A stretch of DNA of 64,000 bases, taken from sequence record MN850564.1. One strand, 5' to 3'. This document shows positions 4,071-18,909 of this stretch, piece after piece. The notes beneath the pieces are model-generated. The model saw only the letters and a program-made list of their open reading frames with translations. It was not told the origin of the DNA and did not search any database. Both the position numbers and the translations under genes were made by a program. Origin of the DNA: Escherichia phage humlepung. Numbering within the stretch: position 1 is the first letter of the stretch; the number at the start of each line of letters is the position of its first letter.

Positions 4071-4414
4071 TACAGTTTCCTCATTAAATACTTTTTAAGT
4101 TGTGTGTTAGGTTTCTCAAAAACTTCTATAGAAGATATCTTGACAGATTCACCACGCATACCAGTATGTTTGAATATGTAGTACTCTAACATCCCTATAT
4201 ACTTTGCTGGTAAGTCATGCTTGACATATACCGTCACAGAATCTTCAAACTCAACGACCTTTGTACCATCTTTGTAGTTAAACTCTTTAGGATGGTTGTA
4301 GTTGTCTATGTCGTACATTAAAAAGAGTCTTTTACGTTGTAAGTCAAGCTTATTTGTTAAAGACTCTTTGATGTCTGAGAAGTTTTTGTACACTGTGACA
4401 TGGAGCTTACTCAT
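4070..4414 (-). CDS. hypothetical protein (114 aa)
   Basis: ORF, start/stop coupling with neighbours. Confidence 0.45.
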   Translation of the reverse strand: MSKLHVTVYKNFSDIKESLTNKLDLQRKRLFLMYDIDNYNHPKEFNYKDGTKVVEFEDSVTVYVKHDLPAKYIGMLEYYIFKHTGMRGESVKISSIEVFEKPNTQLKKYLMRKL

Positions 4415-4700
4415 CGTTAAACTCTCTGACGAAGAAATAGTTGACTTTGTTATTACCTACCATAAGGTCAAAGCAGGTATTCTCAAAAGGTTTGTTGTAG
4501 GCATCATAAGAAGTATATGTATCAGCTACTTGTTTAGTATTGAGCTTTTTACTCGATGGGTTTAAGAGGCCACCATACAGTTTCTTGATAGCCTCTTCTA
4601 CAACAGACCAGATAATTTCGTCAGTAATTTCTTCGTACAGGTCAAGTTCACGCTCTAGTGAGAAGTCACAAATAGGGAAAACAACCTGTACTTTACTCAT
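4407..4700 (-). CDS. hypothetical protein (97 aa)
   Basis: ORF in operon. Confidence 0.45.
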   Translation of the reverse strand: MSKVQVVFPICDFSLERELDLYEEITDEIIWSVVEEAIKKLYGGLLNPSSKKLNTKQVADTYTSYDAYNKPFENTCFDLMVGNNKVNYFFVREFNDE

Positions 4701-5098
4701 TAACGAATCACCTGTGAGACTTGAATTGCTTCAGTTACTGACAAATCACCCACTTTCTCTTCTTTGATAAAAGTGAAGGTGAGTTCAACAGGCTCTTGCT
4801 CTTCTTGCTCAACTGGAACACCGTTAAGCTCATCAAAGATTGATTGAGTTGTCCAGTCTTCTCCACCATCTGGATAGTGGATTGCGTAAAGAGGGAACTC
4901 TAAATCAAACCAACCAAATACAGGACAACCGTCTTCATCATCTCGTACTCGATGAAGTGTGCTTCCAGACCCTGTAAACTGAAGGAATAAATCTCCGTTG
5001 CACTTGTATATTACTGCGTCGGCAAAACCAATGTCTTCTCGACCATCATGACCAAATGTGTCCACCTTTACTTGGATATCTCTAACATCTTTATTCAT
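4700..5098 (-). CDS. hypothetical protein (132 aa)
   Basis: ORF in operon. Confidence 0.45.
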   Translation of the reverse strand: MNKDVRDIQVKVDTFGHDGREDIGFADAVIYKCNGDLFLQFTGSGSTLHRVRDDEDGCPVFGWFDLEFPLYAIHYPDGGEDWTTQSIFDELNGVPVEQEEQEPVELTFTFIKEEKVGDLSVTEAIQVSQVIR

Positions 5099-5489
5099 AA
5101 AAACCTCTCTCTGCTTGTTCGATTTTTGCTTTTAGAACTTCACACCGTTCAATGTGATATCTGGCTTCATGCTCATGTGTCGCCAAAGTTCTTTCAAGAA
5201 TGGTTTTATAGTAACCTGCAAGTTGCTCTCTTGTCAATGGGTTCTCTGAAATAATATCGAGACCACTTTCACCTAGAGTATTAAACTGTCCATGCTCATT
5301 TACATGGTAAGTTTCAAACTTGAATAAACCATTATTAGCAGACTCAATAGGCGATAGTTCAACCAACTCAACAGTAAACCTTGTATGTACCCTATCTCCA
5401 ACTGTAACAACGTTACTTCCAATGATACGTACAAGCGAGCCGTTACGAGTGTACTTAAAAGTTCCAAAGTCACTAGCCCAAAGCTTCAT
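5091..5489 (-). CDS. hypothetical protein (132 aa)
   Basis: ORF in operon. Confidence 0.45.
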   Translation of the reverse strand: MKLWASDFGTFKYTRNGSLVRIIGSNVVTVGDRVHTRFTVELVELSPIESANNGLFKFETYHVNEHGQFNTLGESGLDIISENPLTREQLAGYYKTILERTLATHEHEARYHIERCEVLKAKIEQAERGFYE

Positions 5490-5540: not shown

Positions 5541-6005
5541 TTACTTTGGATATACACTGTCAAGATAAATGTCAGCTTCCATTCTACGTCTGTTTTTCAG
5601 TCCGTTTGAAGTGACCTTCTGACCTTTGACTGTAACCTTGTTCCACCACTGCATAGCTTCTGCACAACCTACCTTATTACCAGCATTGTGGCGCTTGATA
5701 AATGTAGAATCCTGCATAGCTGTGATACCGATGTTGTATGTTTCACTTACAAGTGCATCGAACTCATTCTGAGAAGTTGGAACCTTGATGGCTTTGTTCA
5801 CTGCTGCAACGAACTTTTCAACATCTGCGAGAAGATACTGTTCAGCTTGTTCAGCAGTAATTTTCATACCCATCTTAACAGGTTTTCCGTCAATACGGAT
5901 TGTCCCATACCCAATTGTTGGGATTCCGGCAGAGTCTTCGTAAGCCTCTAACTTCAGACCTTCGAAGAACTTAATAGCATCTAAACCTTTTCTTGAGAGT
6001 TGCAT
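5541..6005 (-). CDS. endolysin, T4-type lysozyme (glycoside hydrolase family 24)
   Basis: N-terminal FEGLKLEAYEDSAGIPTIGYG with Glu-9-Asp-6-Thr spacing like T4 lysozyme E11/D20/T26. Confidence 0.85.
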   Translation of the reverse strand: MQLSRKGLDAIKFFEGLKLEAYEDSAGIPTIGYGTIRIDGKPVKMGMKITAEQAEQYLLADVEKFVAAVNKAIKVPTSQNEFDALVSETYNIGITAMQDSTFIKRHNAGNKVGCAEAMQWWNKVTVKGQKVTSNGLKNRRRMEADIYLDSVYPK

Positions 6006-6889
6006 TATGCCTCCCCTGCTGGGTTAACTGTAACTGTCGACGCATTAGATGTTACAGAGCCACCTGCGCCAGTCACTACACAGGTGTAGCTTCCTGCATC
6101 AGCAGTGGTTGCACCTTCTTTGGTGTAAGTTGCAGCAGTTGCGTCTGGGATGACTTCCTCACCTTTCTTCCACTGATAACCTGTCGCACCTGTTGCCACA
6201 ACATTCAGTGTTAAGGTCTCACCTTCAGTGATTTCTTGATTGGTTGGTTGCTGAGTGATTACCGGAAGTGCATTCACAGTAACTGTTGCTGCATCTGAGG
6301 TAACACTTGTTCCACCCTCTCCAGATACAACACAAGTGTATGAACCAGCGTCAGAAGGTGCTACTGACTGTTTTGTGTAAGTTGCAGAATTGGCACTAGG
6401 GATGTCCTCACCATCCTTCTTCCACTGATATCCAGTGGCGTTAGTTGCTAGAATGCTTAGAGTAAGTGTGCCACCCTCATTGACTGTTTGACCTGTCGGT
6501 TGCTGAGTAATTGCTGGTGGCTTAATAGCATCCTTCAACTTAGCATTCAACATTGAGAACGGCTTAACTCTTGCCAACCATTCACAGTAAATTGTGTCAA
6601 CATCTTTACCATTGATGATTGCATACTGCAAATCCATGAAGAAATCAGCAGTTCTCATCTGTGCACCAACACTGTAAAGCAATTCATCACTAAATGGAAC
6701 TTTGCAGTCTGGTTTGTAGTCAAACTTCTCAACTTCTGCAATATCAGCTTCAGGCCAATATGAACTATAGGTAAGTGGTAAAATAGCCTCTTGATATGTT
6801 CTAAAATCATACCTCTTACCAGCCTTTACATTTGCAATGAAACCCTTCACAAAATCTTTGAAGTCTGGGTAAGTCTTTGCTTTAATCAT
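6005..6889 (-). CDS. protein with two C-terminal tandem Ig-like domains
   Basis: Two ~90-aa repeats (TQQPT...GYQWKK...GSYTCVV) typical of Ig/I-set-like folds; N-terminal domain paralogous to 6886-7257. Confidence 0.55.
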   Translation of the reverse strand: MIKAKTYPDFKDFVKGFIANVKAGKRYDFRTYQEAILPLTYSSYWPEADIAEVEKFDYKPDCKVPFSDELLYSVGAQMRTADFFMDLQYAIINGKDVDTIYCEWLARVKPFSMLNAKLKDAIKPPAITQQPTGQTVNEGGTLTLSILATNATGYQWKKDGEDIPSANSATYTKQSVAPSDAGSYTCVVSGEGGTSVTSDAATVTVNALPVITQQPTNQEITEGETLTLNVVATGATGYQWKKGEEVIPDATAATYTKEGATTADAGSYTCVVTGAGGSVTSNASTVTVNPAGEA

Positions 6890-7304: not shown

Positions 7305-7895
7305 TTAAGCTTTGGTCTTAAGTAGGTTCTTAAGTTTTTTAAGATTCATACTCTCATCAAACTTAAAACCAAATCCATTGACATAATCAATGAACTCGGA
7401 TTTCTTACTAAGTGACAATGCGTAACTCATATCAAAGTTCTTACTTGTTTCTGCGTCTGGACTAGAGTTCACATCAAATGAAATTTCTGTAGGCTCTTGC
7501 TTACTTTTTCTCATATTATCAACCAACAAACATGTATAGTTTGCTGGATAGAAGTTTACACTACCATCAACGTAGCTGTACTTATTATTATGGATAAGGT
7601 TGGAAAATACCTTAAGGAATGTTTCTGAGTCGTGGCAAACAAGTTTGAATTGGCTGCTCTCTCCAAGCGCAACTAATGAGTACGGACTTTCACTATCAAA
7701 GTCATAATTTAGATTCGATGCCGTCACTGTTACACGCATCAAGTTATTAGCAATAGTCTTCTGTTTAAAAGAATTTTGAACATAGTGAAGACCTCTATCA
7801 CACTGATTGACTAGCTCTTTAAGCAGGTCATTTGCATATGGCGAATTAATTGATACAGAGCCATCACTATTGTAATTAAAACTTACTGTTAACAT
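7305..7895 (-). CDS. hypothetical protein (196 aa)
   Basis: ORF. Confidence 0.5.
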   Translation of the reverse strand: MLTVSFNYNSDGSVSINSPYANDLLKELVNQCDRGLHYVQNSFKQKTIANNLMRVTVTASNLNYDFDSESPYSLVALGESSQFKLVCHDSETFLKVFSNLIHNNKYSYVDGSVNFYPANYTCLLVDNMRKSKQEPTEISFDVNSSPDAETSKNFDMSYALSLSKKSEFIDYVNGFGFKFDESMNLKKLKNLLKTKA

Positions 7896-8122
7896 TTTTC
7901 AGTTCTCCTGCGATTTATAATTTTGCTGCAATAGAGAAACGAAGTAAACTCACTGGAAGAAACTACTAAGTGTTGTTCACTAGATTGAGCCATTGCCCTG
8001 AAATACATTCCAGTCAAAGCATCATAGTGACTATTCTTTCCAATTGAGGTTATATAGCCATGACTCTTTGCAGTTTGATATAAATCTATAATATCTGCGA
8101 TTTCTAATTGGGAACTACACAT
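7889..8122 (-). CDS. hypothetical protein (77 aa)
   Basis: ORF. Confidence 0.35.
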   Translation of the reverse strand: MCSSQLEIADIIDLYQTAKSHGYITSIGKNSHYDALTGMYFRAMAQSSEQHLVVSSSEFTSFLYCSKIINRRRTEKC

Positions 8123-8364
8123 AGATAATCCTCTTGTCTTCTGTAATTTTGAAAGAACAGGTACAGACCAATTTCAGAGGATGAATAGTAGAGTAACTCT
8201 ACCCTTTTTGATTCCTTACAGTGATTGGTATTTTTACCTTTCTTCGGGTTGTTTGATTTTCTCATTAAGTCTCCTTTGTAGAACAAGGCAGACCTACAGC
8301 TTTAAGTAAGATGGTACAGTAATCCATACAACAAGTCAAGAACTATTGCAAGTTAAAAAAGTTG

Positions 8365-8394
8365 TTGACAAAGTACTTGACAAGGTGTAGGCTT
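8365..8394 (+). promoter_or_regulatory. Conserved promoter/operator element TTGACAAAGTACTTGACAAGGTGT (copy 1), -35 TTGACA + 17 nt + TAGGCT
   Basis: Near-identical element at 48838-48861; both sit at minus-to-plus strand switch points. Confidence 0.55.
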
Positions 8395-8514
8395 ATAAAT
8401 ACTTAGAAGATAACTTAAAAGGTTCCTCTAAAAAGGCTATTTAAACAGATATCTTTCTGGATATCTATCTTTTATCTTAAAAGCCTTTTAAGAGGTCTTA
8501 TAAGAGGCATACCA

Positions 8515-8886
8515 ATGAAAAACAGAACAAACAAAGGCCAGTTTAAAAAAGGCCAGTCTGGAAACCCATCTGGAAGACCAAAAGGCTCTCGTAACAAAAG
8601 CTCACTCGTAAAAGCTCAACTGACCATTGATAATTCTGCTGAGTTTGCTGCAAAGTTGTTTGAAGCGATTGTTACAAGGGATGCTGCTAAGCTTGCAGAG
8701 TTCGGGTTAAACACAGATGACGTAACCATCAAGAGTATGATTGAGGTTGGTAAAACTATCTTTACTCACTCAGCAGGTGAGATGAAAGCACTTGCAGCAG
8801 ACACTAAGAAGACTCCTGATAATGGTGGTCAACAGCAGACAGATAACAAACCAACGTTCTCTGCTGTAGCGACTCTCAAAAAATAA
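8515..8886 (+). CDS. conserved phage protein with GQSGNPSGRPKG motif (DUF5681-like by recollection)
   Basis: ATG with AAGAGG RBS; N-terminal basic GNPxGRPKG motif. Confidence 0.55.
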   Translation: MKNRTNKGQFKKGQSGNPSGRPKGSRNKSSLVKAQLTIDNSAEFAAKLFEAIVTRDAAKLAEFGLNTDDVTIKSMIEVGKTIFTHSAGEMKALAADTKKTPDNGGQQQTDNKPTFSAVATLKK

Positions 8887-8898
8887 TTTTAAAAGGTG

Positions 8899-8934
8899 TT
8901 GACAGACTCTATAAAGTTGCTCTAAAGTCTGTCA
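8899..8934 (+). promoter_or_regulatory. Sigma70-like promoter (TTGACA-18-TAAAGT) embedded in 9-bp inverted repeat TGACAGACT/AGTCTGTCA
   Basis: Consensus -35, plausible -10, dyad symmetry spanning the promoter; upstream of 8968 gene. Confidence 0.45.
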
Positions 8935-8967
8935 CATCAAACAACAAATGAGAGAAGAGAGTAAAAT

Positions 8968-10383
8968 ATGAGCGAATTATTTAAACATGCGCACCTTCAT
9001 GCAGGTCGAACTGAAAATGGTGCTGTAAACCATACTTCATCAATGTCTGCTCTTGTAGACTTTTACAAAGCTGCTGGTTCGAGCCGTAGCAATGTAGAAA
9101 TCTTACCAGACCTGTTCTACAAAGCTTTGCGTGAGGATGTTGATGTTGCAGTTCGTATTTTACTGCATATGCGAGATGTACGAGAAGGTATGGGTGAGCG
9201 TAAAGCTTTCCGAACTGTTTTACTTAAAGCAATTGAAGATAAGATTTTAGAACCTACACAGGTTCTTCGCATTATGGATAAGATTGCAGAACTTGGTCGT
9301 TTTGATGACTTCAAAATCTTCGTAGGTACTCGTTTTGAGACAGATGCCTTCAAACATTTAGAAGCAGCATTACTAGACCCTGCAACAGCAGGTTTGGCGG
9401 CTAAGTGGTTACCACGAGTCAAACCACGTCATAAGCAGTTTGTAAAACGTTTCTGCAAGTTTGCCAACTTGAGTGAGAAAGAGTACCGCACACTGTTGTC
9501 TGCACTATCTGATACAGTTGAGCAAAAAATCTCTGCTAATGAGTTTGGTAAGATTGACTACAGTAAGATTCCTTCACTTGCTGCTGCACGTTACCAAAAA
9601 CTGTTTAACCGTAAAGATGGAGAGCGTTACAAAGCTTACATCGAGTCCTTATCAAAAGGTGAGACTAAGATTAACGCTGGTGCTGTTTACCCATACGATG
9701 TGATTAAATCTGTCAAGTATGGTAATGCAGATGTTGCTAATGAGCAGTGGAAAGCACTACCAAACTGGATGGCAGAAGGTGAAAACATCTTGTGTATGTC
9801 TGATGTATCAAGTTCAATGTCTTGGGTGAATTTTGGCTCCATTACTGCTCTGGATATTGGTGTATCACTTGCCTTGTATGTAGCAGAACGCAATACAGGT
9901 TGCTTTAAGAATGAGTTAATGGTTTATTCAACAAACCCTCACTTCATCGAACTGAGTGGTGATTTACGAAACCGTCATCGTCAGGTGATGCGACACGTTG
10001 AATATGGCTCAACTAACTTACAAGCAGCTTTTGACCGCATTCTTGAAACAGGTAAAAGAAACAACTTGACTCAGAAAGATATGCCAAGTAAGCTTATCAT
10101 CTTCTCCGATATGGAGTTCAATCAGGTTGATGGAGCTAACGGTCGTACAAACTTTGAAGCAATTCAGAGTAAGTACAAAAAAGCTGGATATGAGATGCCA
10201 CAACTGGTATTCTGGTACTTAGCAAACCGTAATGGTACTTGCGAAGTATCTGTTAAGGATAACGGTGTAGCAATGGTATCAGGGTTCTCTCCAGCCACTT
10301 TAAAAGCTCTGCTTGGTGGTGAGAAGTTTGACCCAATCAGTGTAATGCTCAAAGCAGTAATGATTGACCGTTATATCTGGTAA
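8968..10383 (+). CDS. Ro60/TROVE-like protein with C-terminal von Willebrand factor A domain (DUF2828-like N-terminus by recollection)
   Basis: MIDAS-like DVSSSMS...T...IIFSDMEFN resembling Ro60 vWA (DVSASM / FTDCETN); N-terminal TENGA...S..ALVDFY motif. Confidence 0.6.
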   Translation: MSELFKHAHLHAGRTENGAVNHTSSMSALVDFYKAAGSSRSNVEILPDLFYKALREDVDVAVRILLHMRDVREGMGERKAFRTVLLKAIEDKILEPTQVLRIMDKIAELGRFDDFKIFVGTRFETDAFKHLEAALLDPATAGLAAKWLPRVKPRHKQFVKRFCKFANLSEKEYRTLLSALSDTVEQKISANEFGKIDYSKIPSLAAARYQKLFNRKDGERYKAYIESLSKGETKINAGAVYPYDVIKSVKYGNADVANEQWKALPNWMAEGENILCMSDVSSSMSWVNFGSITALDIGVSLALYVAERNTGCFKNELMVYSTNPHFIELSGDLRNRHRQVMRHVEYGSTNLQAAFDRILETGKRNNLTQKDMPSKLIIFSDMEFNQVDGANGRTNFEAIQSKYKKAGYEMPQLVFWYLANRNGTCEVSVKDNGVAMVSGFSPATLKALLGGEKFDPISVMLKAVMIDRYIW

Positions 10384-10402
10384 AAAGTTTTAAAAAGGGT
10401 AT

Positions 10403-10431
10403 TGACAATGTGTTTAATACCCTTTAATATG
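10403..10431 (+). promoter_or_regulatory. Sigma70-like promoter TTGACA-17-TAATAT inside inverted repeat AAGGGTATT/AATACCCTT
   Basis: Exact -35 consensus, 17-nt spacer, TAATAT -10; upstream of tRNA array. Confidence 0.6.
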
Positions 10432-10548
10432 TTCTACATAGAAGCGAAATGAGAGCTTTTCTAAGATACTGAAAAATATTTTAAAAAAGTTCTTGACAAC
10501 CACTAAAAAATAATGTTAAAGTGGTTACATAGAGTTTGAAAAGTTTAT

Positions 10549-10625
10549 CTCTGTTTAGCTCAGCTTGGTAGAGCGTTCCGTTTGGGGCGGTAAGGCCGGA
10601 GGTTCAAGTCCTCCAACAGAGACCA
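10549..10625 (+). tRNA. tRNA-Pro (anticodon TGG)
   Basis: 7-bp acceptor ctctgtt/aacagag, D-arm gctc/gagc, T-loop TTCAAGT, encoded CCA. Confidence 0.75.
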
Positions 10626-10632
10626 AATTAAT

Positions 10633-10710
10633 GTTCCAGTAGACAAAATGGTAAAGTCACCACTCTTTCAAAGTGGATATTTGAGGGTTCAAATCCCTTC
10701 TGGAACGCCA
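10633..10710 (+). tRNA. tRNA-Glu (anticodon TTC)
   Basis: Acceptor gttccag/ctggaac, anticodon loop cTTTCaa, T-loop TTCAAAT, CCA. Confidence 0.7.
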
Positions 10711-10715
10711 GTTTT

Positions 10716-10791
10716 GACAGAAGACCAATTACAGCAAACTTAATCTTATTCATCTGAAGGTAAATCGGACAAAGAAGAGATTTGGTCTGGT
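10716..10791 (+). repeat. Structured repeat element copy a (5' GACAGAAGACCA ... 3' TGGTCTGGTC)
   Basis: Member of four-copy family with conserved CAGAAGACC...TACAGCAA...GGTCTGG and covarying flanks. Confidence 0.5.
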
Positions 10792-10801
10792 CATTAAGAA
10801 T

Positions 10802-10878
10802 TGCGGGTATAGAGAAAGGGCGTCTCACATGTCTCATTAGCATGGTATCGGCAGGTTCGACTCCTGCACCCGCCTCCA
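10802..10878 (+). tRNA. tRNA with CAT anticodon (Met or Ile2)
   Basis: Anticodon stem catgt/gcatg, loop cTCATta, T-loop TTCGACT, CCA; 1:72 mismatch. Confidence 0.6.
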
Positions 10879-10882
10879 ATTT

Positions 10883-10946
10883 TGCAGAAGACCGTATTCA
10901 GCAACAAAATACTTTTTGCGGATAAAAGAAAAAACACGGTCTGGCA
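10883..10946 (+). repeat. Structured repeat element copy b (5' TGCAGAAGACCGT ... 3' ACGGTCTGGCA)
   Basis: Same family; flank covariation tGC/GCa. Confidence 0.5.
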
Positions 10947-10955
10947 ATGTATTAA

Positions 10956-11029
10956 GGTTAGGAAGCACATAAGGTATGTGCGGTCGCCTGTTAAGCGAAT
11001 GGCACAGGGTTCGAATCCCTGACTAACCG
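10956..11029 (+). tRNA. tRNA-Asn (anticodon GTT)
   Basis: Anticodon loop ctGTTaa, T-arm caggg-TTCGAAT-ccctg, acceptor 6/7 paired; no encoded CCA. Confidence 0.65.
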
Positions 11030-11040
11030 CAAAATTAAAT

Positions 11041-11128
11041 GTGTCGTTATCCCGTAGATGGTAGCGGTGGGGACTGTAAATCCCTTGTCATTGAGACTCG
11101 GTAGGTTCGACTCCTACACGGCACACCA
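11041..11128 (+). tRNA. tRNA-Tyr (anticodon GTA), type II with long variable arm
   Basis: 85 nt, acceptor gtgtcgt/acggcac, loop ctGTAaa, T-loop TTCGACT, CCA. Confidence 0.7.
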
Positions 11129-11133
11129 ATAAA

Positions 11134-11210
11134 GGCTATGTAGTTTAACTGGAGAAAATACTCCCCTGTCACGGGAGATGATGTGAGTTCAAGTCTCATC
11201 GTAGCCGCCA
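11134..11210 (+). tRNA. tRNA-Asp (anticodon GTC)
   Basis: Acceptor ggctatg/cgtagcc, loop ctGTCac, T-loop TTCAAGT, CCA. Confidence 0.7.
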
Positions 11211-11237
11211 ATTTTGAGAGGGCTATTTAGCCCCTCC

Positions 11238-11272
11238 CTTAAAGAGTTCTTACGAGTATTCTTTAAGGGAGC
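11238..11272 (+). repeat. Hairpin CCCTTAAAG-(agTTCTTACGAGtatt)-CTTTAAGGG
   Basis: 9-bp perfect stem; loop motif TTCTTACGAG recurs at 14277-14286. Confidence 0.5.
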
Positions 11273-11348
11273 AGAAGACCAAATACAGCAAGAATGTATG
11301 AAATTTCAAGCCAATTTAATTTTGAAAATTTAAAACTTGGTCTGGCTC
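11269..11348 (+). repeat. Structured repeat element copy c (5' GAGCAGAAGACCAA ... 3' TTGGTCTGGCTC)
   Basis: Same family; flank covariation GAGC/GCTC. Confidence 0.5.
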
Positions 11349-11354
11349 AACAAA

Positions 11355-11493
11355 TTTACAGAAGGCCGTTTACAGCAAAACTTAAACAATCTATTTCTCC
11401 GGTAAAGAAAAGGCGAAGGTTCGATTCCTTCACTCGGCAGATGTCGAGTTGGTGTAATGGTAGCACTTAAGATGATAAACAACGGTCTGGTAA
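11355..11493 (+). ncRNA. Candidate structured ncRNA (element copy d): terminal stem TTACAGAAGGCCGTT/AACGGTCTGGTAA enclosing tRNA-like T-arm and D-arm hairpins
   Basis: Internal gaagg-TTCGATT-ccttc hairpin with T-loop consensus, acceptor-like hairpin, D-arm-like gtgtAATGGTAgcac; no complete tRNA fold. Confidence 0.3.
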
Positions 11494-11639
11494 TTACCTT
11501 TGTAGATAAGTTATTAAGCTTACTTGTGAGTATGCGACCACAAAGGGTGAATGGGTAAATTCTAGATTTAAACCCAAAAAGGCACATCGCTACAGACCTT
11601 AAGCAAGTCTGGGTAGCTTATCTACAAAGATAATTTAAT

Positions 11640-11715
11640 GGAAGTGTAGCAGAATGGTGATGCGGCAGACTTTTAATCTGACAGGCGATGGGTTCGAATC
11701 CCTCCACTTCTACCA
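11640..11715 (+). tRNA. tRNA-Lys (anticodon TTT)
   Basis: Acceptor ggaagtg/cacttct, loop cTTTTaa, T-loop TTCGAAT, CCA. Confidence 0.65.
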
Positions 11716-11719
11716 ATAT

Positions 11720-11796
11720 GGTTCAGTCGCAGATAAGGTAATGCAAGGGTCTCATAAGCCCTATGAATGTGGGTTCGATTCCCATCTGAACCTCCA
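11720..11796 (+). tRNA. tRNA with CAT anticodon (Met or Ile2), second copy
   Basis: Perfect acceptor ggttcag/ctgaacc, loop cTCATaa, T-arm gtggg-TTCGATT-cccat, CCA. Confidence 0.65.
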
Positions 11797-11797
11797 A

Positions 11798-11873
11798 GCT
11801 GGTATAGTTAAGAAGGTTATAACACTCCCCTGATAAGGGAACATCGGTGGTTCGATTCCACCTACCAGTACCA
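11798..11873 (+). tRNA. tRNA-Ile (anticodon GAT)
   Basis: Loop ctGATaa, T-arm ggtgg-TTCGATT-ccacc, CCA. Confidence 0.65.
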
Positions 11874-11888
11874 ATTTCAATAAAGTTG

Positions 11889-11917
11889 TTGACATTGAGA
11901 TGTGACTACTTTATAGT
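11889..11917 (+). promoter_or_regulatory. Sigma70-like promoter TTGACA-17-TATAGT inside the tRNA region
   Basis: Exact -35, 17-nt spacer, TATAGT -10. Confidence 0.55.
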
Positions 11918-12121
11918 AACCTTAGTTTTCGTTGCGTAGCGTCTATTTTGCAAATTTAAAATAAATGCAAACGACAATGTTTTTCTGGCAGTAGCTTGAT
12001 AGGCTAAACACCAGTGAGGTCTTCCAATCCCTCATCAAAGAATTTGGCGTACTCGCCCACGGTATGATTAATAAGGTGGGCATCTTTAAGGGCTTTCTAA
12101 GAGAGTCTTTAAAGATAATTA

Positions 12122-12203
12122 CGGGGCGTATCTCAGCGGTCTTCTAAACCGCCGTTAACCGAGTAAGTGGAGTATGCGGGTTCGAGTCCTGCCGCCTCGA
12201 CCA
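12122..12203 (+). tRNA. Atypical tRNA-like gene, anticodon stem-loop gcggt-cTTCTaa-accgc (TCT, Arg-like), no recognisable D-arm, 23-nt extra segment
   Basis: 7-bp acceptor cggggcg/cgcctcg, T-arm gcggg-TTCGAGT-cctgc, CCA; only 7 nt between acceptor and anticodon stem. Confidence 0.4.
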
Positions 12204-12346
12204 ATTTAGTTAGCAGATTACTTAGACGACCTTAGCGGGTCTTCCTGTAGGGAGGTGGTCTGTATCTCATGTTTTCCAGAACATGTAAATAATCTGAGAA
12301 GGGGCTTTACAGTGTTGAGATAATACGGTAAGCTTCGAATTATAGT

Positions 12347-12429
12347 ATGGGACGATATTAAGACTCTAAGGCATGAGCAACGGCTTCCAACACCGTTTCA
12401 AAGGGGTTCAACTCCTCCGTCCCATGCCA
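12347..12429 (+). tRNA. Atypical tRNA-like gene, anticodon loop compatible with CCA (Trp) closed by a C-A pair, or 9-nt loop
   Basis: Perfect acceptor atgggac/gtcccat plus CCA, T-loop TTCAACT; D-region irregular. Confidence 0.35.
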
Positions 12430-12442
12430 AAGTCTTATTAGG

Positions 12443-12530
12443 GGTAGGTAGCGGCTAATGGTAGCCAAACTGTCTTGAAAACAGTTGCCACTGTAGAGAT
12501 ACGGTGAGGGTTCGACTCCTTTACTTACCG
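12443..12530 (+). tRNA. tRNA-Ser (anticodon TGA), type II
   Basis: 88 nt, stem actgt/acagt with loop cTTGAaa, long variable arm, T-loop TTCGACT. Confidence 0.65.
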
Positions 12531-12787
12531 CCTAATAAGATTTAAAGCCAAGCTTCATTCGGATGTTGCTTTGGTATACCGCGTGTATTGTTGTACGCAC
12601 TGATAAAGCACCTAGTAGGTGTCACGGAGAAGAGATAATATCAAGCTCTCCAAAGGTTCTAGTCACCGGATTAAACAAGACTATGCAAAGACCTTTTTAG
12701 GTCTTTTTAGAGGGCTTCTAAGGTTATTACAGCTTGTTGTGGAACCTTGTTGCTTAGGTTCTTAGAAGTTCTCTAAAAAGATTTAAT

Positions 12788-12865
12788 GGGAGATTGACGG
12801 TAATTGGTAAACCTACCATCCTTAGAAGTTGGTGTTTGAGGGTTCGAATCCCTTGTCTCCTACCA
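12788..12865 (+). tRNA. tRNA with TAG anticodon (Leu-type anticodon but short, type-I length)
   Basis: Acceptor gggagat/gtctcct with G-U pairs, loop ctTAGaa, T-arm gaggg-TTCGAAT-ccctt, CCA. Confidence 0.5.
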
Positions 12866-12872
12866 AATTAAT

Positions 12873-12948
12873 GCAGGTGTAGCAAAATGGTTATGCGGCT
12901 GACTCTTAATCAGTAAGACGATGGGTTCAATTCCCTCCACCTGTACCA
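12873..12948 (+). tRNA. tRNA-Lys (anticodon CTT)
   Basis: Stem gctga/tcagt, loop ctCTTaa, T-loop TTCAATT, CCA. Confidence 0.55.
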
Positions 12949-12954
12949 GACATT

Positions 12955-13030
12955 GGGGTCATAGTTTATATGGTTAAAATTCGAGTTTTGCAAACTTGGG
13001 AACTGAGTTCAATTCTCAGTGACTCCACCA
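12955..13030 (+). tRNA. tRNA-Ala (anticodon TGC)
   Basis: G3:U70 wobble pair in acceptor (Ala identity element), loop ttTGCaa, T-arm ctgag-TTCAATT-ctcag, CCA. Confidence 0.75.
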
Positions 13031-13036
13031 ATTAGT

Positions 13037-13111
13037 GCATCCATAGTTTAAACGGGAAAATTACAGTCTTCCAAACTGAGGTTGAGGGTTCGATTCCCTC
13101 TGGATGCTCCA
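13037..13111 (+). tRNA. tRNA-Gly (anticodon TCC)
   Basis: Perfect acceptor gcatcca/tggatgc, loop ctTCCaa, T-arm gaggg-TTCGATT-ccctc, CCA. Confidence 0.7.
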
Positions 13112-13117
13112 AACAAT

Positions 13118-13194
13118 GCTGCTTTCGTATAATTGGCTATTACACATCCCTTGTAAGGATGGAAATGCAGGTTCGAGTCCTGTGAGCAGCACCA
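13118..13194 (+). tRNA. tRNA-Thr (anticodon TGT)
   Basis: Perfect anticodon stem catcc/ggatg, loop ctTGTaa, T-loop TTCGAGT, CCA. Confidence 0.75.
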
Positions 13195-13199
13195 ATTCA

Positions 13200-13283
13200 G
13201 AGGTCAAGTGAAAGACCGCTGGTGTCAACTGAAGACCGTAACAAATTCCACGGAGTTGAGTTAGCGGCACAACTTCAGACCTC
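13200..13283 (+). repeat. Stem element AGAGGTC...GACCTCT enclosing a GAAGACCGTAAC motif
   Basis: 7-bp terminal inverted repeat; internal CTGAAGACCGTAACAAA resembles the 5' arm of elements a-d. Confidence 0.4.
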
Positions 13284-13289
13284 TTTCAC

Positions 13290-13364
13290 ACTCGCTTAGT
13301 TTATATGGTAAAACACCACCCTTACAAGATGAAGAAAAAGGTTCAAGTCCTTTAGTGAGTACCA
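13290..13364 (+). tRNA. tRNA-Val (anticodon TAC), tentative isotype
   Basis: Acceptor actcgct/agtgagt, loop cTTACaa, perfect T-arm aaagg-TTCAAGT-ccttt, CCA; anticodon stem has mismatches. Confidence 0.55.
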
Positions 13365-13365
13365 T

Positions 13366-13443
13366 GTTCCAGTATCCCAATTGGCAGAGGATGCAAGCTC
13401 AAACCTTGTATTAGTGACGGTTCGAATCCGTCTTGGAACACCA
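13366..13443 (+). tRNA. tRNA with CAA anticodon (Leu-type anticodon, type-I length)
   Basis: Acceptor gttccag/ttggaac, stem gcaag/cttgt, loop ctCAAac, T-arm gacgg-TTCGAAT-ccgtc, CCA. Confidence 0.55.
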
Positions 13444-13462
13444 ATTTAAAGAGGCTATTTAG

Positions 13463-14020
13463 ATGAGATATTTGAAGTATGCTTCATGGATTTTCCTAGC
13501 TTTACTAGAGCCATTTGCAGCAACCCTAGCAGTCATCTTAGCACCTTTCGTAGTTCCATTCTACAGTGAGAAGAAAGGACACTTACCTTTCGGGTTCAGA
13601 TGGATGGAGACATATGACAACCCAATTGATGGTGATGAAGGTCACGTTAAAAGATGGGCTAATATTAGATGGATTGGTAAACTAGGTGTCTACATGCAAA
13701 GAGTTGGATGGCTCTGGAGAAACAAAGCTTATAACTTCTCTTACCATGTATTAGGAAGAGATGTAAAAGATGTTACTAAGTGGAAAGGTAATATCAACGT
13801 AAGTTCTAACCCTGAAGATAATCAGACTGGTTATCTCCTAATGTGGAACAGGAATGCTTGGGGATTATTCGCTTTTATCCCATCAATTAAAATCTTTGGT
13901 AAACAATTTTACTGGAGAATTTATATTGGATGGAAACTAAAAAGTGTTGTCCCAGAAGAAAGAGCATTCTCAAGGGAAAGAGTTATGTTGGCATTCTTTA
14001 TTCATCCACTGAGAAAGTAA
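13463..14020 (+). CDS. hypothetical membrane protein (185 aa, Trp-rich) encoded inside the tRNA array
   Basis: ATG with AAAGAGG RBS; N-terminal hydrophobic segment. Confidence 0.55.
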   Translation: MRYLKYASWIFLALLEPFAATLAVILAPFVVPFYSEKKGHLPFGFRWMETYDNPIDGDEGHVKRWANIRWIGKLGVYMQRVGWLWRNKAYNFSYHVLGRDVKDVTKWKGNINVSSNPEDNQTGYLLMWNRNAWGLFAFIPSIKIFGKQFYWRIYIGWKLKSVVPEERAFSRERVMLAFFIHPLRK

Positions 14021-14028
14021 AGATTTAA

Positions 14029-14104
14029 AGGGGATTAGTTTACAAGGTTAAAACCTCGGTCTTTGAAATCGAAGAAGTTGGTTCAATTCCAACATCCCCC
14101 GCCA
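14029..14104 (+). tRNA. tRNA-Gln (anticodon TTG)
   Basis: Loop ctTTGaa, perfect T-arm gttgg-TTCAATT-ccaac, CCA; 1:72 mismatch. Confidence 0.6.
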
Positions 14105-14106
14105 AT

Positions 14107-14185
14107 GCTCCATTACTCCAATTGGCAGAGAGGCCAGACTTAAAATCTGTGTTATGTATCGGTTCGAATCCGATATGGAGTACCA
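14107..14185 (+). tRNA. tRNA with TAA anticodon (Leu-type anticodon, type-I length)
   Basis: Loop cTTAAaa, T-arm atcgg-TTCGAAT-ccgat, CCA; D-arm resembles the CAA tRNA. Confidence 0.5.
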
Positions 14186-14190
14186 AATTT

Positions 14191-14266
14191 AGCGGTATAG
14201 CATAACTGGCAATGCAGCAGTCTCTGAAGCTGTCTTATTAAGGTTCAAATCCTTATGCCGCTGCCA
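14191..14266 (+). tRNA. tRNA-Gln (anticodon CTG), tentative
   Basis: Acceptor agcggta/tgccgct, D-stem gcat/atgc, loop ctCTGaa, T-arm taagg-TTCAAAT-cctta, CCA. Confidence 0.55.
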
Positions 14267-14267
14267 C

Positions 14268-14294
14268 TTCTAAGGATTCTTACGAGAGTCCTTA
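14268..14294 (+). repeat. Hairpin with loop motif TTCTTACGAG (second copy)
   Basis: aaggaTTCTTACGAGagtcctt; motif shared with 11250-11259. Confidence 0.45.
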
Positions 14295-14297
14295 AAT

Positions 14298-14373
14298 GTG
14301 GCCTTATCATAAATGGTAATGACCCATGCTGTGAACATGGTCTATACGGGTTCAAATCCCGTAGGTCACCCCA
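14298..14373 (+). tRNA. tRNA-His (anticodon GTG)
   Basis: Perfect anticodon stem ccatg/catgg, loop ctGTGaa, T-arm acggg-TTCAAAT-cccgt, CCA. Confidence 0.7.
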
Positions 14374-14379
14374 ATTTAT

Positions 14380-14455
14380 AGTCCAAGTAGCTTATATGGT
14401 TAAAGCGCGTGTCTGAAAAACATGAGAAGAGGGTTCAAATCCCACTGGACTACCA
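14380..14455 (+). tRNA. tRNA-Phe (anticodon GAA)
   Basis: D-stem gctt/aagc, loop ctGAAaa, T-loop TTCAAAT, CCA; acceptor register uncertain by 1 nt. Confidence 0.6.
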
Positions 14456-14471
14456 ATTTCAAAGGTGCTTA

Positions 14472-15206
14472 ATGAAAGAGATGACAGAACAAGGTAAGGA
14501 GATTTTTAATCTCTTAAAAACCGGTAAAGGGTTTTCTAACCCACTTATTACTGGTGCAGCAGTTCTCGGTGGAACCGTAGCTGCCTCTACATCACTTGTA
14601 AGCTCTATTAGCTCTGTAACAGACCCTACAATGAAGGAGAAGCTTGTTGCTGCTGGACTTACAACAGTCCTTCTAAACAGCTTTACAACAATCCTGACAA
14701 GCACTACAGCAACCACTAAGACCCTAACAGACTACGGTCAAAAGTCTATTGATGAGTTTTCATCACGTATGCAGGTAGCAAAGGGATATTCCAATGTTAT
14801 GGGTGCAGCAGGAGAACAAGTTGGTTGTACACCATTCAGTGGTATTATGGGTGTTGCTACAGAGTATGGTCAAAAAGCTATTGACATGATTAACAGTACA
14901 CTAGATAGTGTTAATGGTGTGTTAAGTGACTTACAAGACGCTATTGATGAGGGTCTTGATACTGTTTCTGATTTAGCTAATCAGGCTGTTAGTAAGATTA
15001 ATGAAGGTATTTCAAAGATTACAGCTTATGCAGATGAAGTTGTGCAGATGATTGAAGAAGAAGCTGCCCTTATTGCAGAGTACCTTAAAACGAATATCAA
15101 TGGGTTCTTAGCAGGTATCTTACCAGACTGGTTTGATGATGCTTGTAAAACTGGTGTAATTGATGCTATTGCAACACCAGAAATGAAGAACGCATTACAG
15201 AAATAA
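14472..15206 (+). CDS. hypothetical protein (244 aa, Ala/Thr/Ser-rich)
   Basis: ATG at 14472 with AAAGG RBS; the track start at 14409 would overlap tRNA-Phe. Confidence 0.5.
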   Translation: MKEMTEQGKEIFNLLKTGKGFSNPLITGAAVLGGTVAASTSLVSSISSVTDPTMKEKLVAAGLTTVLLNSFTTILTSTTATTKTLTDYGQKSIDEFSSRMQVAKGYSNVMGAAGEQVGCTPFSGIMGVATEYGQKAIDMINSTLDSVNGVLSDLQDAIDEGLDTVSDLANQAVSKINEGISKITAYADEVVQMIEEEAALIAEYLKTNINGFLAGILPDWFDDACKTGVIDAIATPEMKNALQK

Positions 15207-15207
15207 T

Positions 15208-15300
15208 GGAAGATTAACCCTAAAAGGTAAGGGAGCAGTTTGCTAAACTGCCAGTAGCTGAGAAATCGGTGTACCAGTTCAAGTCTGGTATCTTCCTCCA
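15208..15300 (+). tRNA. tRNA-Ser (anticodon GCT), type II
   Basis: Perfect acceptor ggaagat/atcttcc, stem gcagt/actgc, loop ttGCTaa, long variable arm, CCA. Confidence 0.7.
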
Positions 15301-15304
15301 ATTT

Positions 15305-15380
15305 GAATCCGTGACAGAAATGGCTATGTGCCTGTCTGCAAAACAGGTTTATAAGGGTTCGAGTCCCTTCGGATTCTCCA
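15305..15380 (+). tRNA. tRNA-Cys (anticodon GCA)
   Basis: Perfect acceptor gaatccg/cggattc, stem cctgt/acagg, loop ctGCAaa, T-arm aaggg-TTCGAGT-ccctt, CCA. Confidence 0.75.
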
Positions 15381-15602: not shown

Positions 15603-15803
15603 ATGAGTGAGACCATTTATAAAGAACTTTATGAAGCTAATAAGAAGCTAGAGTTTATGCAGAATACTATCATGGCAATTGCAGATAGATTATCTGTAGC
15701 AACAGGTATAGATATTAAAGAAGCATCTATGGATGCACTTCTTGATGCTGTTGATGCAAAGTTCGAAGTTAAGAAAGAAGAGACTGCGACAGACTCTGAA
15801 TAA
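15603..15803 (+). CDS. hypothetical small acidic protein (66 aa) upstream of terminase
   Basis: ATG with GGAG RBS. Confidence 0.4.
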   Translation: MSETIYKELYEANKKLEFMQNTIMAIADRLSVATGIDIKEASMDALLDAVDAKFEVKKEETATDSE

Positions 15804-15824
15804 TTCTATTTGCGGAGGCGCTTA

Positions 15825-17426
15825 ATGGACTTAAATGCTGTTAAGCAGAAGCGAGTGGAAGATGTTAGGAAAGTCCTAGCTGGAGAGTTGGGGCTTTCTG
15901 ATGAAGTAAAAGAAATTATCAAATCATTCGGTAAAGACCCCTCTAAATTCCTTCCAACTCAAATTCTGACTTTATTAAGATACACACCAGACCAAGTTAG
16001 GCTTATCTTCAAATTGATGACTGATAAGAACTATGTAGCCCCTCAGCCGGGTTCTCAAGAGGTCTTTTTAAACACTAATGCTGACTTGGTTCTTTATGGT
16101 GGTGCTGCTGGTGCTGGTAAAACTGCTGCATTGTTAATGGACTCTTTAAGATTTATTGAAGACCCTAACTATAATGCTGTATATTTCCGTCGAAATACAA
16201 CACAGTTACAAGGTGGTTTATGGCCTGCTGCAAAGAAACTATTTGGTAAGTTTGGTGGGATTCCCCATGAGCAGAAAATGACTATCACATTCCCTTCTGG
16301 GGCGACTATCAAGTTTACCTATCTAGAACTTGAAAAGCACGCTGAAGGCCATCAGGGTATTGAATACTCAGCTATTTACTTTGACGAAGGTACACACTTC
16401 TCTGCTTCACAGATTTCATACCTACAAACCCGTCTACGTTCTGGTGCTGAAGGTGATTCATACATGAAGATTTCCATGAACCCAGATAGAGACCACTTTA
16501 TTTACGATTGGGTAGAACCATTCTTAGATGAAGAAGGTTACCCAGACCCTGAAAAGTGTGGTCGTATTCGTTGGTATGTAATGAATGATGGTGTGATGGT
16601 TTCTGATTGGGAGAGAGACAAGATTCTTGAAATGTTCCCTCTTGAGATTCCTCAAACATATACATTCATCTCTGGTACGATTGATGATAACCCAATTCTT
16701 GACTTCTTAGAACCAAAATACCGTGGTAAGTTGGAAAACAACACCCCTGTAAACGTTGCAAGACTTCGTTTCGGTAACTGGAAGGCTCGTGCAGAAGGTT
16801 CAAACTATTGGCAAAGACAATGGTGTGAAATTGTTGATTCACTCCCAGAAGATGTATTTGATGTTAGAGCATGGGACTTAGCAGCAACTTTACCATCGGA
16901 GATTAACCCTAATCCAGACTGGACAGCAGGTGTTAAGATGGGTAAATCTAAAAAAGACGGTTGCTATTATATCATTGATGTAGTAAGATTTAGAGATAGA
17001 CCCTCTGGAGTCGAAACACAAATTAATTTGACTGCTGAAAGTGACGGTAAGCGAACTGGTATTTTTATCCCTCAAGACCCAGGCGCTGCTGGTAAATCCT
17101 ACGCAACATCCCTCATCAGGAAACTTGCCGAGAAAGGTTATCGAGCAAGAGCCAAACCAACAAATAAAGATAAAGTTACCCGCTTTGCGGGATTTTCTGC
17201 TGCTTCTGAAGCTGGACTTGTAAAAGTCTTGAGAGGTAGTTGGAATGAAGCTTACTTTCAAGAGCTTGAAGGCTTTTGTGGTGATGGCAAAACTAAAGAT
17301 GACCAAGTGGATGCTACCAGTGATGCTTTCAACAGTCTTAACGAAGTTAAATTATTCAAGCCACCATCAATGGGTGCTCACACAGATTTAGTGAGAGGAA
17401 ACCCATATGAGGGGCTTAGACGTTGA
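15825..17426 (+). CDS. terL: terminase large subunit
   Basis: Walker A LYGGAAGAGKT; start moved to ATG 15825 with GGAGG RBS (track start 15810 is TTG). Confidence 0.85.
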   Translation: MDLNAVKQKRVEDVRKVLAGELGLSDEVKEIIKSFGKDPSKFLPTQILTLLRYTPDQVRLIFKLMTDKNYVAPQPGSQEVFLNTNADLVLYGGAAGAGKTAALLMDSLRFIEDPNYNAVYFRRNTTQLQGGLWPAAKKLFGKFGGIPHEQKMTITFPSGATIKFTYLELEKHAEGHQGIEYSAIYFDEGTHFSASQISYLQTRLRSGAEGDSYMKISMNPDRDHFIYDWVEPFLDEEGYPDPEKCGRIRWYVMNDGVMVSDWERDKILEMFPLEIPQTYTFISGTIDDNPILDFLEPKYRGKLENNTPVNVARLRFGNWKARAEGSNYWQRQWCEIVDSLPEDVFDVRAWDLAATLPSEINPNPDWTAGVKMGKSKKDGCYYIIDVVRFRDRPSGVETQINLTAESDGKRTGIFIPQDPGAAGKSYATSLIRKLAEKGYRARAKPTNKDKVTRFAGFSAASEAGLVKVLRGSWNEAYFQELEGFCGDGKTKDDQVDATSDAFNSLNEVKLFKPPSMGAHTDLVRGNPYEGLRR

Positions 17427-17442
17427 TAGCTAGGTGAGAAGA

Positions 17443-18909
17443 ATGGCAGATATTACAGAAACACAAGAAAGCTTACCACCATTTAGAATGGGTGAAGTAG
17501 GTTCTTTGGGTCTGAAGGTTAAGAATGGAAGAATCTATGAAGAACCTCGTCAGGCACTAAGGTTCCCTGAAAGTATTAAAACTTTCCAATTAATGATGCG
17601 TGACCCTGCTGTAGCAGCATCTGTAAATATTATTAAGATGTTTGTCAGAAAAGTCAACTGGAGATTCGTACCTCCAAAGGGAAAAGAGCAAGACCCTAAA
17701 ATGCTTGAAAGAGCAGACTTCTTTAATTCTTTAATGGATGACATGGAGCATGATTGGGCAGATTTTATTAACTCTGTAATGTCATTCTGCACTTATGGAT
17801 TCTGTGTTAACGAAAAAGTTTATAAGAAGCGTCAGGGTAAAAAAGGAAAGTATCAGTCTAAATTTGATGATGGTCTAATTGGATGGGCTAAATTACCAAT
17901 TAGAAATCAATCAACACTTGATAAGTGGTATTTTGACGAAGACTTTAGAAAAGTTACTGGTGTTAGACAGAATCTGAGAAATGTTTCACATATTGCTGGA
18001 GCAATTAATCTCGGAGAAAGACCACTGACAAGAAAACTTCCACGAGCTAAATTCATGCTGTTTAAGTATGACGATGAATATGGAAACCCAGAAGGTCGTT
18101 CACCATTACTTAATGCTTATGTACCGTGGAAGTATAAAGTGCAGATTGAAGAGTACGAAGCTGTTGGCGTTTCAAGAGACTTGGTAGGTATGCCGAAGAT
18201 TGGTTTACCACCAGACTATCTGGATGAAAATGCAGAACCTGAAAAGAAAGCTTTCGTACAATACTGCAAAACTGTTGTCAATGACATGATTGCTAATGAC
18301 AGAGCAGGTTTAATCTGGCCTAGATATATTGACCCAGACACTAAAGAGGATATTTTTGAGTTCTCATTAGTTTCTAGACAGGGTGCTAAAGCATACGATA
18401 CAGGTTCTATTATTGACAGATATTCCAAGCAGATTATGATGGCATTTATGTCAGATGTTCTTGCTATGGGTCAGTCAAAATACGGTTCATTCTCTCTTGC
18501 AGATTCTAAGACAAGCTTACTAGCGATGTCAGTAGATATTCTGCTGAAGCAAATTAAGAACGTAATTAACCGTGATTTAGTTGCACAGACTTATGCTCTT
18601 AATATGTGGGATGACGAAGAACATGTACAAATCACATATGATGATATCGAAACTCCAGACCTTGAAGCAATTGGTTCTTATATTCAGAAGACTGTTGCAG
18701 TAGGTGCTTTGGAAGTTGACAAAGAGCTATCTAACAAGCTTAGAGAGCATATTGGTCTTCCTCCTGCTGATGAGTCTCAGCCAGTATCTGAAAAGCTTTC
18801 TCCAAATAGCCAAAGCCGCTCAGGAGATGGTTATAAGACCGCTGGAGAAGGTACTGCAAAGACACCTTCAGCGAAAGACCCAAGCACAGCAAATAAGGCA
18901 AATAAATAA
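17443..18909 (+). CDS. portal protein (putative)
   Basis: ~490 aa directly downstream of terminase; ATG 17443 with RBS. Confidence 0.6.
   Translation: MADITETQESLPPFRMGEVGSLGLKVKNGRIYEEPRQALRFPESIKTFQLMMRDPAVAASVNIIKMFVRKVNWRFVPPKGKEQDPKMLERADFFNSLMDDMEHDWADFINSVMSFCTYGFCVNEKVYKKRQGKKGKYQSKFDDGLIGWAKLPIRNQSTLDKWYFDEDFRKVTGVRQNLRNVSHIAGAINLGERPLTRKLPRAKFMLFKYDDEYGNPEGRSPLLNAYVPWKYKVQIEEYEAVGVSRDLVGMPKIGLPPDYLDENAEPEKKAFVQYCKTVVNDMIANDRAGLIWPRYIDPDTKEDIFEFSLVSRQGAKAYDTGSIIDRYSKQIMMAFMSDVLAMGQSKYGSFSLADSKTSLLAMSVDILLKQIKNVINRDLVAQTYALNMWDDEEHVQITYDDIETPDLEAIGSYIQKTVAVGALEVDKELSNKLREHIGLPPADESQPVSEKLSPNSQSRSGDGYKTAGEGTAKTPSAKDPSTANKANK

Follow-up and report, generated by a model that had tools for sequence, protein, structure and literature searches.

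A DUF5681-family protein as a candidate for the small terminase subunit reported missing from Felix O1-type phages

What is the function of the small basic protein that is encoded just upstream of the Ro-like gene of Escherichia phage humlepung? The window analysed here, a stretch of 64,000 nucleotides of this phage (MN850564.1), is of Felixounavirus type, with 98% identity to wV8, LF82P9 and others. A preliminary description had likened the N-terminal motif of the protein to a nucleic-acid-binding arm and had proposed a functional partnership with the Ro-like gene, or alternatively a role like that of a small terminase. The second possibility touches a known gap. Felix O1 was reported to have a large terminase (TerL) and no recognisable small one (TerS), and it was considered odd that its packaging and morphogenesis unit should begin at gene 41 (Whichard et al. 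2010, PMC3185647). In the complete genome of the Felixounavirus LinBro, a PHROG-style annotation found TerL and no TerS, and none of the ORFs adjoining terL in the window matched a TerS family. The genes concerned are the following.

8515–8886, + strand: DUF5681-family gene, candidate small terminase; 123-aa ORF with ATG start, ortholog of Felix O1 gp41 and wV8 gp46
8968–10383, + strand: Ro-like/vWA gene, 471 aa (Pfam DUF2828 and DUF7788; PHROG 850, 'RNA-binding protein')
10549–15380, + strand: 24 tRNA genes (tRNA scan) with interspersed small ORFs, between candidate terS and terL
15810–17426, + strand: TerL, 538 aa, with 70% identity to the TerL annotated in phiEa104; terL of wV8 is syntenic
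17434–18909: ORF, portal gene, following TerL

The ORF at 8515–8886 is real; its ATG is preceded at a distance of 7 nt by a Shine-Dalgarno sequence (AAGAGG, 8502–8507). The Felix O1 counterpart is gene 41, and the RefSeq entry of wV8 lists it as gp46, a 'DUF5681 domain-containing protein'. A profile search of the kind recommended in the preliminary description confirmed this assignment, with 54.1 bits for Pfam DUF5681 (PF18932) against a gathering cut-off of 27.5 (E = 2.3e-14, aa 7–78). By these scores the match is beyond chance, and the first 42 aa alone reach 45.4 bits. PHROG 4114 (function unknown) matches end to end at E = 2.4e-75. Full-length homologs at 49–100% identity were found by tblastn in 296 phage records, all of Ounavirinae type, and K12, G13, N17, G20, R21, P22 and N27 are unchanged throughout an alignment of 62 homologs.

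The family is large, with about 19,000 clusters at 50% identity. No function is given for it by Pfam, PHROGs, NCBI or the literature searched; an NCBIfam search with the protein returned nothing, and the sole mention of DUF5681 in a literature search was a virion mass-spectrometry match. In bacterial and metagenomic loci DUF5681 also occurs as tandem two-domain proteins of about 280 aa (P0077, P0119), and tandem genes are present at positions 4236–5178 of locus L259. Elsewhere in the window, a gene on the − strand (6005–6889) codes for a 294-aa protein that contains a pair of almost identical Ig-like repeats (…TQQPT.Q…EG.TLTL…ATGYQWKK…AGSYTCVV…). Its counterpart in wV8 is longer (1134 nt) and is annotated as a tail protein.

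The protein can be divided into an arm, a helical body and a tail.

8533–8598, + strand, codons 7–28: basic arm, K-G-x-S-G-N-P-x-G-R-P-K-G-S-R-N-K (AT-hook-like), defined by invariant or near-invariant columns
8596–8805, + strand, codons 28–97: helical body, putative oligomerisation hairpin (AlphaFold2 helices 28–54, 57–61 and 72–97)
8806–8883, + strand, codons 98–123: flexible tail (low pLDDT)
8848–8871, + strand, codons 112–119: tail peptide K-P-T-F-S-A-V-A, putative partner-docking motif (from conservation)

Two AlphaFold2 runs (pLDDT 67 and 72) agreed in predicting disorder for aa 1–27, helices, and again disorder for aa 98–123, with a pLDDT of about 80 across the helical body. The pI is 9.95 for the whole protein and 11.8 for aa 1–40. 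Residues 7–25 read KGQFKKGQSGNPSGRPKGS, in agreement with the preliminary description. In the tail, P113 and A119 are invariant among Felix-type homologs and F115 and V118 nearly so, while the phiPMW-type proteins have an invariant F-S dipeptide close to the C-terminus.

PDB profile searches with three DUF5681 alignments revealed no solved relative, and fold searches with the monomer model gave no TerS match. The best PDB match of the family profile was the second AT-hook of HMGA1 (PRGRPKGSKNK versus PSGRPKGSRNK), at a non-significant E = 0.35; the HMGA AT-hook came up again with two further family profiles (PDB E = 0.35–1.3, none significant). Both segments are basic and disordered, and over G-R-P-K-G-S-R-N-K the one difference is Arg in place of Lys. 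The canonical R-G-R-P core is, however, absent. Its first Arg is Ser in this protein, giving S-G-R-P, and Asn, Lys or Ala in relatives, and ahead of the motif stands a conserved K-G-x-S-G-N-P, which AT-hooks do not have. No Pfam AT_hook match is listed for the 123-aa protein. Because the first Arg is lacking we call the arm AT-hook-like and not an AT-hook. With its conservation, predicted disorder, high pI and match to the extended AT-hook of HMGA, it looks like a nucleic-acid-binding arm, as had been proposed from the motif, and contact with the minor groove is putative.

AT-hook proteins are also found in bacteria, WhiB7 being an example. A metagenomic protein of 798 aa (P0061) with nine canonical RGRGRPKGSKNK repeats was picked up by the DUF5681 profile, for which it is the top score in a library of 1.8 billion proteins; at its C-terminus it carries nine tandem EKRGRGRPKGSKNKATLAKEQAAQ repeats, which are canonical AT-hooks. 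Literature searches pairing AT-hooks with small terminases yielded no relevant link, and a search by motif string returned papers on eukaryotic AT-hooks only.

By genomic position, DUF5681 genes are associated with the large terminase gene. An IMG/VR scan with a DUF5681 alignment as query produced 72 non-Felix loci, a phylogenetically narrow set that forms only 16 clusters at 70% identity. At 63 of the 72, a TerL homolog starts between −103 and +212 nt from the stop of the motif ORF. Two further loci have TerL, one above the Pfam cut-off (L098) and one sub-threshold (L070), and the remaining seven, with less than 760 nt of downstream sequence, are not evaluable. TerL is thereby found beside the DUF5681 stop at all 65 evaluable viral loci. 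Pfam confirmed Terminase_3, Terminase_6N or Terminase_6C in seven out of eight diverse representatives.

A scan of bacterial genomes with the core subfamily as query gave 78 evaluable loci from many phyla; at 68 of these a TerL homolog follows within about 400 nt, typically with a 4-nt overlap. The genes at about 13% of the bacterial loci lie away from TerL, next to a serine recombinase, a transposase or unrelated genes, and the P0060 subfamily is likewise not beside TerL. Individual cases of the TerL arrangement are L005 and L008, two marine phages in which the DUF5681 gene overlaps the TerL start, and Leptospira phage LE4, whose annotated TerL is overlapped by the DUF5681 gene. The genome of Salmonella phage STGO-35-1 has been opened so as to begin at TerL, and its last CDS is DUF5681. 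At L002 and L104 the gene stands between a DNA methylase gene and a gene for a protein of 442–470 aa, which is similar to Pfam-validated TerL (E = 1e-26 to 1e-31). Hence, the wider DUF5681 family occupies the canonical terS slot, its stop overlapping or abutting the start of terL.

The block of ParB-methylase, DUF5681 and TerL-like genes on a bacterial contig (L002/L003, 1–12405) adjoins JetD/SbcC-like genes of Wadjet type. No portal gene was called in the approximately 4.6 kb downstream of the TerL-like gene, and the block could be a satellite-like or degraded element.

The window departs from this arrangement. Between the stop of the DUF5681 gene at 8886 and the start of terL at 15810 there are 6.9 kb, with the 24 tRNAs and other genes in between. 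Loci with a Felix-type TerL were arranged by TerL identity to the window.

TerL at least 95% identical: 22 loci with enough upstream sequence; DUF5681 gene 5.1–7.7 kb upstream in 21; 15–26 tRNAs; Ro-like gene adjacent
TerL 63–70% identical: 5 loci; DUF5681 gene 4.8–6.9 kb upstream in 5 of 5; 10–27 tRNAs; Ro-like gene in 2 of 5
TerL 35–38% identical (phiPMW-like): 10 loci; DUF5681 gene 506–815 nt upstream; 0 tRNAs; no Ro-like gene

The 22nd locus of the first group, L130, also has the DUF5681 gene, with a 1-nt indel in a run of A. In this Felixounavirus-type IMG/VR sequence (gene at 2267–2650) the A-rich run covers codons 2–11 and a stop precedes the motif; the indel may reflect a natural frameshift or else an error in sequencing. 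In Erwinia phage phiEa104, of the same subfamily, 26 annotated tRNA features come immediately after the DUF5681 gene (60% identity), and TerL (70%) comes next. A marine relative with 35% identity over the full length of the protein and 41% in TerL shows the order DUF5681, 8 tRNAs, HNH, TerL, portal. Of the distant loci with a Felix-type TerL, 20 have 8 kb or more of sequence upstream, and 10 of these show no motif gene.

Felix-type and phiPMW-type proteins align over aa 4–99 (hhalign, 97%, E = 3e-11) and are therefore likely orthologs. The simplest history would be that the two parts of a terS-terL module were driven apart by an expanding tRNA island, accompanied or not by the Ro-like gene. 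A 265-aa ORF (14409–15206) lies inside or after the tRNA array. It belongs to PHROG 2114, is weakly similar to tape-measure and 'GTP-binding domain' PHROGs, and is kept in phiEa104 (44% identity) and in L015, where the homolog contains DUF7217.

The relationship to the TerL-abutting subfamilies is more restricted. The Felix-type protein resembles members of DUF5681 and of PHROGs 4114, 26239 and 8771 in passing the gathering score, in the K-G-x-S-G-N-P-x-G-R-P-K-G-S signature and in size. By hhalign it shares only 33 columns (aa 5–37) with the core subfamily and 38 with the marine one. Both matches fall within aa 5–42, that is, in the arm and the start of helix 1, whereas core and marine subfamilies have 86 columns in common. 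The body from aa 43 to 123 shows no detectable homology to either, and the similarity does not extend over a whole domain of about 77 residues. Since homology is confined to the arm region while the other two share much more, the arm may be a portable DNA-binding module carried on different bodies.

We propose that the protein encoded at 8515–8886 is the TerS reported as missing from phages of Felix O1 type, and we put the probability of this at slightly better than even, roughly 0.55. The support is positional and comparative throughout. It comes from the 65 viral and 68 bacterial loci with TerL next to DUF5681 and from the phiPMW-type genes at 0.5–0.8 kb from terL, and it favours the small-terminase alternative of the preliminary description. 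In the proposed mechanism, the disordered Lys/Arg-rich arm (aa 1–27) with its AT-hook-like core would contact AT-rich phage DNA through the minor groove, at the site where packaging starts or close to it. The helical hairpin (aa 28–97), as modelled, would form an oligomer in which many arms bind DNA jointly, as in known TerS rings. The C-terminal tail with its P-T-F-S-x-V-A peptide would then dock TerL and pass the DNA to the motor.

TerS proteins such as T4 gp16, P22 gp3, SPP1 G1P, Sf6 gp1, lambda Nu1 and T7 gp18 are small, about 100–180 aa. DNA is bound by their N-terminal part, which is followed by a helical core and, at the C-terminus, by a flexible tail. The core forms a ring of 8–12 subunits. 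The present protein would fit this anatomy in its length of 123 aa, its pI, its basic arm (DNA binding putative), its predicted helical core and its floppy tail, and most DUF5681 genes lie, like terS, directly upstream of terL, often overlapping it. It differs in that searches by sequence and by fold matched it to none of the solved TerS proteins, and in having a disordered AT-hook-like arm instead of the usual helix-turn-helix.

Several observations count against TerS. In the window, a stretch of 6.9 kb that contains 24 tRNA genes and the Ro-like gene lies between the gene and terL, and the gene is paired with the Ro-like gene between P41 and t42. Separation as such is known elsewhere: terS and terL are not always neighbours, and in T7 genes 18.5 and 18.7 stand between 18 and 19. 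The DUF5681 genes away from TerL, namely the P0060 subfamily and those at about 13% of the loci in bacteria, the restriction of homology with the TerL-abutting subfamilies to the arm region, and the distant loci without a motif gene (10 of 20) also speak against it. Additionally, mass spectrometry of STGO-35-1 virions picked up a DUF5681 protein (2 peptides), which would be unusual for a TerS. In RT-PCR of Felix O1, ORFs 41, 42 and 52 (TerL) all peak at 25 min (PMC3185647, Table 3). This shared timing is weak evidence for TerS because the 25-min class is large, comprising 59 ORFs with the Ro-like gene among them (PMC3185647).

The main rival, which we regard as unlikely, is a DNA-binding regulator or architectural protein acting outside the packaging motor, at the divergent 40/41 promoter region or in the middle/late switch, where the AT-hook-like arm would act on AT-rich promoter DNA. 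The surroundings of the gene bear on this.

8365–8391, + strand: P41-equivalent promoter-like site, TTGACA-N15-TGTAGG, 150 nt before the ATG
8414–8507, + strand: leader with nested inverted repeats (I2, I3, I7, I16), ending in the Shine-Dalgarno sequence AAGAGG
8899–8928, + strand: sigma-70-like promoter, TTGACA-N18-TAAAGT (10/12 matches), in the gap before the Ro-like gene
10394–10425, + strand: terminator-like hairpin (scan), with the sequence of Felix O1 t42 (PMC3185647, Table 2), closing the gene 41–42 pair

Felix O1 P41 is TTGACA(N15)TATAGG at an equal offset (PMC3185647). The equivalent site in the window scores below the pass level of the consensus scan and has a second TTGACA nearby (8377–8382). 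The leader is predicted to fold at −28.4 kcal/mol (z = −2.5 versus shuffles), with repeat arms at 8425–8441 and 8479–8495 and an inner pair at 8447–8453 and 8460–8466; its 3' arm contains a copy of AAGAGG 12 nt ahead of the real Shine-Dalgarno sequence. The repeats are unchanged in close relatives, and in distant ones they can be aligned only poorly. An Rfam search over 7800–11000 returned tRNAs only.

The gene is the first of a rightward unit, as had been described from its place at the head of an operon, and in Felix O1 the segment from P41 to t42 bounds it together with the Ro-like gene. In favour of a regulator is this place at the head of the unit, next to a divergent intergenic region in which promoter-like sites and nested inverted repeats occur. 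The temporal control of transcription in Felix O1 has found no explanation, and neither a phage RNA polymerase nor a sigma modifier is known (PMC3185647). The arm-only homology to the TerL-abutting proteins and the DUF5681 genes away from TerL would also suit a regulator. The family-wide stop-start overlap with terL is, however, hard to explain for a transcription factor, as are the phiPMW-type orthologs so close to terL, and no helix-turn-helix or other regulator domain was found with Pfam and NCBIfam.

Three near-consensus sigma-70-like promoters (TTGACA-N17/18-TAAAGT or TAATAT) lie at 8899–8928, at 10402–10430 within the t42 hairpin, and at 10493–10522 ahead of the tRNA array. Their positions suggest that the Ro-like gene and the tRNAs may be transcribed apart from gene 41.

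Less probable than a regulator is that another small protein is the true TerS, or that none is needed, with the DUF5681 protein as an accessory DNA-binding factor. One candidate of this kind abuts terL.

15603–15803, + strand: acidic 66-aa ORF, pI 4.4, rival TerS candidate (PHROG 4397, function unknown)

Small ORFs abut terL in phiEa104 and L015 as well. In phiEa104 this is gp044, a weak syntenic homolog (30% over 43 aa, E = 0.004). Phages without TerS have been reported (PMC3185647). The 66-aa protein is, however, acidic, is barely conserved even within the Ounavirinae, is replaced by an HNH gene in the marine relative, and matches no family beyond its PHROG; because of its acidity, its poor conservation and the lack of a family it was ranked below gp41. 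An acidic small ORF, gp125, occupies the same slot before terL in phiPMW.

The proposal with which the locus was originally associated, a functional partnership with the Ro-like gene, has fared worst. The gene at 8968–10383 is called Ro-like on account of its DUF2828 and DUF7788 domains and its assignment to PHROG 850. A Felixounavirus-type DUF5681 protein could have been recruited, instead of or besides packaging, to partner the Ro-like/vWA protein as an AT-hook-like RNA binder, the basic arm acting on structured RNA such as the phage's own tRNAs or a tRNA-like RNA. The two genes are 81 nt apart and probably co-transcribed between P41 and t42, they belong to the same 25-min expression class, and they are adjacent in every Felixounavirus-type genome examined. 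AT-hooks are able to bind RNA too, according to section 1.2 of a review (PMC11354804).

Co-occurrence argues otherwise. Ro-like homologs are present in 709 phage records (Mycobacterium, Vibrio, Listeria, Campylobacter, Staphylococcus, Enterococcus, Bacillus and more), whereas three DUF5681 queries found only about 300, nearly all Ounavirinae, plus Leptospira LE3/LE4, phiPMW and a few others. The overlap is confined to Felixounavirus-type phages, and most Ro-like records have no detectable DUF5681 gene. Conversely, the whole genome of phiEa104 contains no Ro-like gene (best tblastn E-value 0.24). It is equally absent from the marine relatives, the phiPMW-like phages, L129, L137 and L143, and from within 6 kb of the gene at all 72 other viral DUF5681 loci. 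Since phiEa104, the marine relative and these 72 loci lack a Ro-like neighbour, the association is one of a single lineage. The Ro-like gene moreover has a strong sigma-70-like promoter of its own. The resemblance to Ro60/Rsr-Y RNA RNPs is one of neighbourhood only, a Ro-like/vWA gene being next and tRNA genes following, and it differs from them in that DUF5681 and Ro-like genes occur together in one phage lineage only. We know of no Ro partner similar to the 123-aa DUF5681 protein. From these distributions we judge that the Ro-like gene is probably cargo inserted beside an older gene and not its partner, and recruitment to the Ro-like protein is the least probable of the explanations considered here.

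Directly after the Ro-like gene of L015, ARAGORN reports a 'tRNA-???' with a 4-base anticodon (12031–12101), and the phiEa104 record has a tRNA-Undet directly after the DUF5681 gene (L018, 9437–9509). These may be RNAs of a tRNA-like or Y-RNA-like kind, of possible relevance to the Ro-like gene.

As a phage, Felix O1 is a classic of diagnostics and biocontrol, and gp41 is now a specific candidate for its missing terminase subunit. This would be a useful annotation and not a new kind of system, and it leaves the principles of phage biology unchanged. If the assignment of gp41 as TerS is true, it would give DUF5681 a function and improve the annotation of packaging modules in many phages and prophages. 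It would also define a new type of TerS that apparently reads DNA with an AT-hook-like arm and not with a helix-turn-helix, and provide a case of terS and terL being parted by an intervening tRNA island, either with a Ro-like gene or without one.
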